A DNA stretch of 64,000 nucleotides from a virus (lineage: Duplodnaviria; Heunggongvirae; Uroviricota; Caudoviricetes), in the IMG/VR virus record IMGVR_UViG_3300049044_000033, positions 158,796 through 222,795 of that record; one strand, 5' to 3'. Of this stretch, positions 6,088-6,586 are shown in pieces. Under the pieces are notes generated by a model. The model searched no databases. It saw only the letters and a list, made by a program, of their open reading frames with translations, and was not told where the DNA came from. Made by a program: the position numbers and the translations under genes. How positions within the stretch are numbered: the first letter of the stretch is position 1; each line of letters opens with the position of its first letter.

Positions 6088-6586
6088 TGGTTAGGGCTCT
6101 AAAGGGGCGAACCTCTAGAGCCCAACCAAGCTAGCCGAAGCCTGCTCGGTTTTCGTTGCCGTCGGGTACTTTGACACATTCCCAGAGGGAATAGCCAGGG
6201 AGCCTCCAGTTGACAACAAAACTCGGTTTAGGCCAGCTAGGTCTCTTCCCACGAAAGGTCAATCTCTAGCTGGCCAACCAACAAGACCGAAGCCTTGTGG
6301 CATTTGTGTAGGGGCTCTGCATAGGCCCTAAGGCCACTAAGCGGAGTCTTTCACAAATTCGGTTTAGGGACCAGTCAATCCGAAAACTAACTGGTCCCAA
6401 CCAACAAAGAATCAACGCGAGCCGAATCTTTGTGGCTTCTGTGCCAGGGATCTACTGTTGCTATGATCGGACCGAAGTCTTCTCAGGGAGTTCAGCAGTC
6501 TTTGCACAAAACTCGGTTTAGGACAGTTGGGTTTAAATCAGGAGATCGCTACCCAACTGTCCAACCAGTGAACCGAAGTTCATTGG
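6088..6586 (-). repeat. Array of four structurally conserved hairpin units
   Basis: Each unit on minus strand: UUCG hairpin, GGUU-GG[8-12 bp variable stem]CC-UA-(A)ACC; stems start at + coordinates 6094, 6231, 6367, 6521. Confidence 0.85.

Follow-up and report, generated by a model that had tools for sequence, protein, structure and literature searches.

We describe here a modular RNA encoded by a huge phage. Within a 64,000-nt stretch of DNA (the window; bases 158,796-222,795 of a 462,455-bp virus record), four tandem three-hairpin modules lie on the minus strand beside a transfer RNA (tRNA) island. Patterns of sequence change among relatives indicate that these modules very probably constitute a real, selected, stand-alone structured noncoding RNA gene. 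The RNA is previously undescribed, with no counterpart in the RNA family libraries or the literature searched. The length of the record, together with its direct terminal repeats, identifies the source as a huge phage. Our best overall explanation, to which we assign a probability of about 0.45, is that the locus is a stand-alone modular RNA gene whose product acts as a multivalent platform or decoy.

A conserved array of hairpin modules

The pattern TGGTTGG-N(18-48)-CCTAAMC matches the window four times, starting at 6567, 6403, 6280 and 6128 on the minus strand and lying within 6089-6567, compared to 0.03 matches expected from shuffles. The four hairpin modules reported in a first-pass annotation of the window are therefore real, and the spacing given there for the 3' motif, 137, 136 and 154 nt, is confirmed. 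The 462-kb genome contains no further stem-bearing copy of the pattern. Each module runs in the order H3, NCC, H1, one nucleotide, GGUU, GR, H2, YC, a bulge of 1-2 nt, AACC and (C)GAG. H1 is a helix of 7-11 bp with a tetraloop cap, and H2 is a variable stem of 7-13 bp; in the window, the H2 stems are perfect, 8-13 bp long and different in sequence in every unit, bearing out the earlier observation that the stems differ and still pair. The three hairpins stand almost end to end (H3, 3 nt, H1, 1 nt, H2, 2-3 nt, next H3), and this large RNA is predicted to be almost wholly helical. About 20 nt per module are near-invariant, namely NCC, (U/C)GGUUGR, YC, the 1-2 nt bulge and AACC, while the helices and loops vary, yet pairing is kept. 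When whole modules are aligned, they appear as diverged paralogues whose invariant letters are limited to A..CC(A), UGGUUG and C.AACC. The units of the array are 136-164 nt long and include no identical repeats, the longest shared word being about 14 nt. The 641-nt stretch folds with a z score of -9.6 relative to dinucleotide shuffles.

The same RNA is present in eight further phage sequences, giving 36 modules in nine distinct sequences, with 3-5 modules per RNA. Three of these relatives came from pattern scans of IMG/VR DNA: a 465-kb record with four modules (L003, also G002), a 436-kb record with three (L015, also L005 and G001) and a 40-kb fragment with three (L048, also G003). The others (L067, L069, L070/72/73, L074 and L075/76/77) were reached by synteny, through homologues of a neighboring 114-amino-acid protein in JGI, ENA and Logan assemblies. 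These synteny-found members are more divergent, with four or five modules and changed letters (CGGUUGG, GGGU, and the bulges AG, AA and UG). Where size is informative, the carriers are phage contigs of 151-470 kb. In these phages the modular RNA adjoins tRNA islands, usually with the large phage RNA GOLLD as well.

Scans of viral, metagenome and prokaryote sequences with exact-word patterns found nothing outside this clade. The module-pattern viral scans returned two real relatives and otherwise chance matches without stems, and a viral scan with H3 words returned the same two relatives only. Five matches were obtained in metagenomes, all within protein-coding sequence, and seven in prokaryote genomes, none with stems. 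A blastn search of GenBank phages gave no match to the RNA, and a synteny search with seryl-tRNA synthetase gave no related loci. So far, the RNA appears to be restricted to one clade of huge phages.

An insert of about 300 nt follows the fourth module in three of the relatives (L067 4998-5180, L069 ~5000-5115, L070 ~4995-5170), and in L069 and L070 it divides the fourth module from a fifth. The insert starts with a possible small open reading frame (ORF; M-I/V-R-L-S/T...) behind a AAAUAGGAGCA-like sequence. The window has no counterpart of it, only a 10-codon mini-ORF.

Covariation and strand

A covariance model (R1) built from 15 modules recovers 35 of the 36 modules across the nine sequences (expectation values [E] from 1e-18 to 8e-4), an outcome of the covariance-model search that the first-pass annotation had proposed. 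Within the 64-kb window, R1 matches nothing beyond the modules of the array. Across the alignment of 35 modules, standard pairs account for 95.0% of cells compared to 71.7% in shuffles, two-sided changes occur at 16 of 22 pairs (154 cells, compared to 40 in shuffles), and the covariation score is 0.607, compared to 0.179 when shuffled and at most 0.106 when partners are slid; with the alignment fitted to R1 and the sequences related, these counts lean toward structure, yet the margin is large. Each H2 position shows three to six pair types. RNAalifold analysis of the leader, module 1, H3 and module 2 in the nine sequences likewise places changes on both sides of 24 of 69 pairs. A lack of both transcription and conservation, or identity with a known terminator or origin repeat, had been named as grounds for giving up the element; it is conserved, and no known repeat of either kind was matched. 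The idea that the units might be guide RNAs was dropped, as their variable parts are internally paired, covarying stems.

Paralogous stems have wholly different sequences. G-U pairs are frequent, so the fold belongs to the minus-strand transcript rather than to duplex DNA. This bears on the possibility that the locus is a DNA-level element (an origin, a cruciform or a site of DnaA titration) or, alternatively, a type III antitoxin or CRISPR-like array. In favor of this group of explanations are the pair of conserved DnaA-box-like 9-mers just upstream and the abundance of inverted repeats in the region. However, the many G-U pairs would be C-A mismatches on the other strand, the cumulative GC skew is monotonic at the locus, the boxes number only two and there is no AT-rich unwinding element. 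As for the arrays, the repeats are long and diverged, and no toxin, Cas or reverse-transcriptase gene is nearby. We consider this whole group of explanations extremely improbable, and the origin or cruciform option raised in the first reading of the window was abandoned on the strength of the strand-specific G-U pairs, the absence of a turn in GC skew and the lack of an AT-rich unwinding region.

Promoter and upstream boxes

A predicted sigma-70-type promoter is located at 6703-6675 on the minus strand, with the -35 hexamer TTGCAA at 6703-6698, a 17-nt spacer and the -10 hexamer TACATA at 6680-6675; from it, we infer a transcription start at about 6672-6668. The first-pass annotation had offered this promoter as a possibility, and comparison strengthens it: its position and spacing are conserved in the nine sequences. 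These retain both hexamers, as TTGCNN and TASATR (less clear in L074), at a distance of 17 nt, with a spacer of variable sequence. What follows the RNA is variable, with GOLLD downstream in the window, an ORF in G001, a PAS kinase gene in L069 and a T5orf172 gene in L074. A conserved promoter combined with differing downstream neighbors argues for a stand-alone gene.

We also considered a cis-regulatory leader. Because the downstream genes differ between lineages, the RNA is not a leader, and this candidate was ruled out.

Two direct DnaA-box-like 9-mers, TAATCCACA at 6753-6745 and TTATCCACA at 6741-6733 (minus strand; 12 nt start to start), precede the -35 hexamer by about 30-50 bp. Boxes occupy the same place in all relatives (TTATCCACA, TTATTCACA or TTATGCACA; in L074, TGTCCACA twice), and their flanks diverge. 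The genome contains 10 occurrences of TTATCCACA compared to about 3.5 expected. These boxes may be the site of a regulator, either host DnaA or a nearby helix-turn-helix (HTH) protein of the GerE type. The latter, a GerE/LuxR-type HTH protein encoded at 8617-9030 on the minus strand (PF00196, E 1e-5), is a candidate regulator of the RNA locus; in most relatives, namely L067, L068, L069 and L074-L076, an orthologue is annotated 3-4 genes upstream of the RNA, and no Pfam match is recorded in L070-L073. A similar sequence, ATATCCACA, adjoins a TTGACA at about 4645, upstream of an ORF at 3862-4581.

Invariant words and possible function

Conservation in this RNA is limited to about 20 junction nucleotides, with drifting helices and caps in 3-5 modules, a pattern that suggests a repeated recognition site on a neutral scaffold. 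The loops vary between orthologues (UUCG, UUAG, GAAA, GCAA and CUUG), which argues that they are caps rather than contacts. Because an invariant motif is shown 3-5 times on variable helices and its copy number differs between phages, the RNA is most likely a platform or decoy. In the mechanism that we propose, the invariant words would form, at the base of H2 and next to H1, a bulged helix made of GGUU:AACC and a GG:CC clamp, with ACC:GGU as a competing and almost equally stable pairing. Displayed three to five times on variable capped helices, the same motif could allow the RNA, in the course of infection, to bind several copies of one partner, either another RNA or a protein of the host or phage. 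The RNA would then be part of a translation-related island of the phage, along with tRNAs, tRNA synthetases, Y RNAs and GOLLD. We put forward this multivalent mechanism tentatively, at somewhat below even odds. From the options listed in the first-pass annotation, a protein sponge and the processing of small RNAs stay as the leading readings, and the antitoxin mimic, guide RNA and origin do not.

The GGU of each module has two possible partners: the downstream AACC, with which it would form the bulged helix below H2, and the upstream ACC, with which it would lengthen H1. The nucleotide before GGUU and the nucleotide after AACC pair in 25 of 35 modules (UG in 10, CG in 7, UA in 6 and AU in 2) and are unpaired in 10, with C never found opposite A at this flanking -1/+1 position. 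Some unit types lengthen the helix, as in GUCGGUU/AACCGAC and ACAGGUU/AACCUGU. The flanking pair and the extended helices weakly favor GGUU:AACC pairing within the same module.

Other arrangements of these words were ruled out. If AACC paired with GGUU from the following module, L069, L070 and L074 would have A-C and G-A mismatches. The UUCGG loops of H1 might form a pseudoknot with AACCGA, but in orthologues these loops change to UUAG, GAAA or GCAA. The bulged helix was also compared with K-turns and with the 11-nt tetraloop receptor; it lacks tandem G-A pairs, and its bulge is a single U in some units.

Several observations weigh against a platform or decoy. The GGUU:AACC and ACC:GGU pairings are nearly isoenergetic in every unit, partition functions give both of them sizeable and unit-dependent probabilities, and the choice that RNAalifold makes between them changes from unit to unit; because both sets of pairs are invariant, covariation cannot decide between them. 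The association at the flanking pair has a p value of about 0.07 in a hand calculation that ignores relatedness. With only nine related sequences, shared ancestry inflates the cell counts in the alignment. Searches of the neighboring genes with PADLOC, Pfam and PHROGs gave no match to a nuclease, toxin, RNA-binding or defense family, and no partner was found. Finally, an invariant motif on variable helices fits a processing signal equally well.

If the invariant words are processing signals, the transcript would be a precursor that is cut into unit-length small RNAs, namely H3-H1-H2 units of about 125-165 nt, with the words and the short spacer before H3, (C)GAG followed by UUUU..., recognized by RNase E, P or III. 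H3 would then be a variable cargo, and the products would resemble the stable small RNAs that arise from phage tRNA clusters. Consistent with this, the inferred start coincides exactly with the beginning of the unit architecture, so that the first unit, like the others, opens with H3, and the H3 domains are unit-specific yet conserved among phages, as for cargo. An NCCR follows each H3 closing stem, recalling the acceptor end of a tRNA, and processing of precursors is routine in tRNA islands such as the one that houses the locus. RNase E has a loose cleavage preference with which AG/UUU in the spacer is compatible. On the other hand, the putative cleavage site is at the foot of a helix rather than in an open region, a different sequence (mostly ...AU) precedes +1 in the tRNA genes of the phage, ARAGORN and Rfam find nothing tRNA-like in the units, and the spacer word differs across unit types (GAGUUU, GACGUU and GGUUCC). 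We regard processing into small RNAs as unlikely overall; it is not exclusive of a role as a platform.

The competition between ACC:GGU and GGUU:AACC could also be a switch, in which case the RNA would be an array of ligand-binding or switching junctions whose ligand is a small molecule or an RNA 3' end. Variable capped helices combined with invariant junction nucleotides are found in riboswitch aptamers, the two pairings are close in energy in every unit, and UGGU is complementary to the tRNA end ACCA. A switch would, however, be expected to regulate something, and there is no conserved downstream gene; few invariant unpaired nucleotides are available to form a pocket, no Rfam aptamer matches, and the bistability could stem from the short GC-rich words themselves. 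We consider a switch very unlikely.

Anatomy of the individual modules

From the inferred start at about 6672-6668 to position 6086, the first 590 nt or so of the RNA comprise four complete modules, all on the minus strand. The leader domain (6588-6672) is the H3 of module 1 and has a UAUCGG...CCGAUA closing stem around an internal hairpin with a UUCG hairpin at about 6621. This last hairpin had been taken for a partial fifth unit. It is present, and its location inside the leader H3 means that the RNA consists of four complete H3-H1-H2 modules instead. UAUCGG and CYGAUA are complementary in all relatives (with a G-U pair in G001), and the inner helices of the leader covary. The module 1 core (6512-6587) consists of ACC, H1 with a UUCG cap, CUGGUUGG, H2 (ACAGUUGGGU/ACCCAACUGU), CC, UA, AACC and GAG, and matches R1 with an E of 4.6e-4. 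In its H2, GGGU/ACCC is replaced by GAGU/ACUC in L003.

The H3 of module 2 (6437-6511) is a long irregular hairpin with the closing stem UUUUGUGC/GCACAGAA and the words UGAACUCCCUG and AACAGUAGA. Its closing stem and inner helices stay paired through two-sided changes, and the two words are kept in eight of the nine sequences, L074 being different. The module 2 core (6358-6436), which is matched by R1 at 60.8 bits (E 6.7e-13), contains GCC, a 10-bp H1 with a 10-nt loop, UUGGUUGG, H2 (GACCAGU.../...ACUGGUC), CC, UA, AACC and GAA. Module 3 follows with an H3 at 6302-6357, closed by AUUUGUG/CACAAAU, for which G001 has UUCC/GGAA at the matching position. Its core (6222-6301; R1 39.4 bits, E 1.4e-7) comprises GCC, H1 with UUCG, UUGGUUGG, an H2 with a 25-nt inner part (CCAGCUAG/CUAGCUGG), CC, UA, AACC and GAG. 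The H3 of module 4 (6151-6221) has the closing stem UUUUGUUGUC/GGCAACGAAA; in the L003 orthologue, the helix is kept and the sequence is changed (UUUUGUUACCUUC/GAGGGUGACAAAA). The last core, that of module 4 (6086-6150; R1 E 5.8e-5), contains ACC, H1 with UUCG, UUGGUUGG, H2 (GCUCUAGAGG/CCCCUUUAGAGC), CC, a single-U bulge, AACC and AUA, and its H2 is changed but paired in L003, G001 and L048.

This closer view alters some details of the first description of the array. The bulge that was given as UA throughout is UA in units 1-3 and a single U in unit 4 (CCCUAACC). Units 1-3 do continue with GA(G/A)UUU(U)GU, and two of them then with AAAGACU. The linkers that had been described as unique, by contrast, are more than unstructured spacers: they are paralogous, conserved H3 hairpins with closing stems of the UUUUGUG/CACAAAA type.

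Downstream of module 4, a block at 5835-6085 (minus strand) is a possible 3' domain of the transcript, with GGUCAGYUGGACYUCGUGAGCCARACAC followed by a GC-rich hairpin and AAAAC. The block is conserved in the window, L003, L067, L069 and L074, and covariation within it is weak. It is possibly the 3' domain of the modular RNA or else a separate small RNA. No intrinsic terminator was found on the minus strand between 7000 and 4500.

Genomic setting

The minus strand of the window carries 55 tRNA genes between 10.5 and 32.9 kb. Among them is a tRNA with the anticodon CUA (27034-27107, minus strand), an amber suppressor that ARAGORN labels Pyl. GOLLD (RF02032) was identified at 4703-5152 on the minus strand by Rfam cmscan (171 bits, compared to a cutoff of 150), and the RNA locus sits about 0.9 kb upstream of it on the same strand, with the tRNA island on its other side. 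The stretch of about 2 kb at 4.6-6.75 kb contains short ORFs only (at most 113 amino acids), and a seryl-tRNA synthetase gene lies at 2493-3773 on the minus strand. GOLLD appears to own a promoter-like site near 5800-5755. Within the GOLLD region (4655-5800, minus strand), this site reads TTGATT-17-TATAAG, 5152-5760 is likely a variable 5' region, and about 4690-4655 holds a terminator-like hairpin (CCUGGUUCGGAAACGGACCGGG UUUCACC). Among the relatives, G001, G002, G003, L067, L070 and L075 have a GOLLD too, and the modular RNA is within about 1-2 kb of GOLLD in at least six of the nine sequences; GOLLD did not turn up in the loci fetched for L069 and L074.

The array might have been the variable 5' half of GOLLD. 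This candidate was rejected on account of the promoter-like site between the two, the ORF that separates them in G001, and the absence of an adjacent GOLLD in L069 and L074.

The same proximity raises the question of whether the modular RNA is an RNA-only architectural molecule of the GOLLD and ROOL kind, with modules that would pack together, with other copies or with GOLLD, to give an object of defined three-dimensional shape. It occupies the genomic niche of these phage RNAs, which occur near tRNA islands and form RNA-only cages (Kretsch et al. 2025, PMC12286853). Nearly all of this large RNA is predicted to be helical, GOLLD is often close by, and its two conserved words compete for GGU in a manner that could allow strand exchange between units or molecules. 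However, its variable, stable tetraloops offer no conserved loop-loop or loop-receptor candidates, a module number of 3, 4 or 5 fits a closed symmetric object poorly, no pseudoknot is supported, and GOLLD is missing from the fetched L069 and L074 loci. An architectural role is therefore rather improbable in our estimation.

The gene for the 114-amino-acid protein (7589-7933, minus strand) is the upstream neighbor of the RNA in every relative, with 55-64% identity. This protein has no Pfam, PHROG or PADLOC match, and its AlphaFold model is all-alpha (predicted local distance difference test [pLDDT] score 69); a Foldseek search of the PDB gave nothing better than E = 1.3. Without a fold match, the protein provides no lead to an RNA-binding partner. 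Between this gene and the RNA promoter, in this phage and G002 only, is an ORF (6751-7536, minus strand) whose stop codon overlaps the first DnaA-like box; its product has a long tract rich in Ser, Thr and Gly and a tail that resembles PEP-CTERM (VPAPPMFLLFGMAVTGLVVGRRIRN). PADLOC, Pfam and PHROGs assign only a GerE-type HTH protein, Bax1-I, seryl-tRNA synthetase and a glycosyltransferase among the neighbor genes.

Two further features of the window were recorded. An Rfam match at 13425-13563 (minus strand) to the nematode small RNA family ceN72-3_ceN74-2 (39 bits, compared to a threshold of 38) is almost certainly a false family assignment. An 863-amino-acid protein encoded at 60016-62607 (minus strand) combines Mtd_N, the N-terminus of a major tropism determinant, with a phage tail collar domain, which hints at a target of a diversity-generating retroelement among the tail fiber genes.

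Significance

To our knowledge, only a handful of large structured RNAs from bacteria and phages lack an assigned function, namely OLE, GOLLD, ROOL, raiA and HEARO. Each of these has opened new biology, and three were recently shown to be RNA-only dimers or nanocages. The locus described here adds a candidate class with another design principle, in which tandem covarying three-hairpin modules with an invariant frame are encoded beside GOLLD. It also provides a tractable second RNA of the tRNA island, at about 0.6 kb with clear module boundaries and natural variants of three, four and five modules, and so offers a way into the role of translation-related RNA islands during infection. Should the RNA prove to be a multivalent decoy, phages would have in it an RNA-based tool for host takeover or counter-defense; should it self-assemble, it would extend the range of natural RNA architectures.

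Comparison with known systems

Rfam 15 (4227 models, including ROOL, STAXI, YrlA, 6S, tmRNA, riboswitches and ribozymes) gave no significant match in the RNA region, where the best scores were noise (mir-133 and BASRCII26, each at 16 bits, compared to cutoffs of 55 and 218). At permissive as well as gathering thresholds, in the window and five relatives, GOLLD and tRNAs were the only significant matches at the locus. The GOLLD model, which requires at least 150 bits, detected nothing in 5835-6700 even at E up to 10, and likewise in the relatives. Neither ARAGORN nor the Rfam tRNA model detected a tRNA at 5.8-6.7 kb.

Other tandem or repeated elements differ from the array in basic respects. 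CRISPR arrays and RNA anti-CRISPRs have identical short direct repeats; none occur here, where the stems differ between units, in agreement with the statement in the first-pass annotation that the array is not CRISPR. The ToxI, CptI and TenpI repeats of type III toxin-antitoxin systems are 34-45 nt long, nearly identical, situated beside a toxin gene and processed into units. The modules share with them an organization in tandem RNA repeats, but the units here are 136-164 nt and diverged, and PADLOC and Pfam found no ToxN/AbiQ/CptN/TenpN-type endoribonuclease among the six flanking ORFs; these differences speak against the proposed antitoxin mimic. Intrinsic terminator repeats can be set aside, as no such site was found on the minus strand in 4500-7000 and H2 is followed by UAAACCGAG rather than by U runs. 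A DnaA-dependent origin is not indicated by two boxes only, a local GC content of about 0.50 and a monotonic skew.

Y RNAs (YrlA, RF02553; Ro60) resemble the modules in having a constant handle and a variable body, in occurring in several copies per phage and in their location in the tRNA island. The Y-RNA handle of this phage (GAGGGCCG.../...UUGCCCUC), however, differs from the module frame (GGUUGG/CCUAAACC), and the modules are joined in one transcript. No RF02553 match was obtained, and the modules do not contain the stem sequence of the Y RNAs as read at 16140-16470 and 18470-18700.

A likeness to ribosomal RNA (rRNA) was also noted. The paired words at the base of helix 45 of 16S rRNA (UAACCG...CGGUUGG, checked against Escherichia coli) recur unchanged in the frame of 12 of the 36 modules, and most others have UGGUUGG. 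By analogy, the RNA might be a multivalent phage mimic of a cellular RNA surface, either the base of helix 45 or, in a variant of this idea, a tRNA acceptor end, represented by a stem followed by ACCA that is held by UGGU. Such an array might titrate a host factor, for example, a ribosome-maturation factor or a defense RNase that attacks rRNA or tRNA ends, and would then be a counter-defense or host-takeover device encoded beside phage tRNAs, synthetases, Y RNAs and GOLLD. Relative to rRNA, however, the module connects its strands in permuted order, with GGUU 5' and AACC 3'; the rRNA order would require AACC to pair with the next module's GGUU, where L069, L070 and L074 have A-C and G-A mismatches. 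Because only about eight independent bases match helix 45, chance is a fair explanation, and we regard mimicry, in either variant, as a long shot.

Like the modular RNA, GOLLD and ROOL (RF02032 and RF03087; Weinberg et al. 2009 and 2017) are large, heavily structured noncoding RNAs of phages or prophages encoded next to tRNA islands. Each of them, however, adopts one complex fold with pseudoknots and conserved tertiary contacts, in contrast to the RNA described here, which consists of 3-5 tandem modules with variable loops.

In mechanism, the closest match to a platform or decoy is provided by the Csr/Rsm RNAs (CsrB/CsrC and RsmX/Y/Z), a resemblance in design logic only. These RNAs consist of many hairpins with GGA in their loops, and their repeat number varies among relatives. 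In the modular RNA, by contrast, UUCG/UUAG-type loops serve as caps, and the motif that stays invariant is a bulged helix at the base of a stem. The comparison implies no partner of the CsrA type. Among the H1 and H2 loops, which are UUCG, UUAG, GAAA, GCAA or longer and variable, GGA does not recur. What the nine sequences do share is the set of features by which we propose to define the modular family, namely tandem H3-NCC-H1-(U/C)GGUUGR-H2-YC-bulge-AACC modules behind a promoter, with covarying helices.

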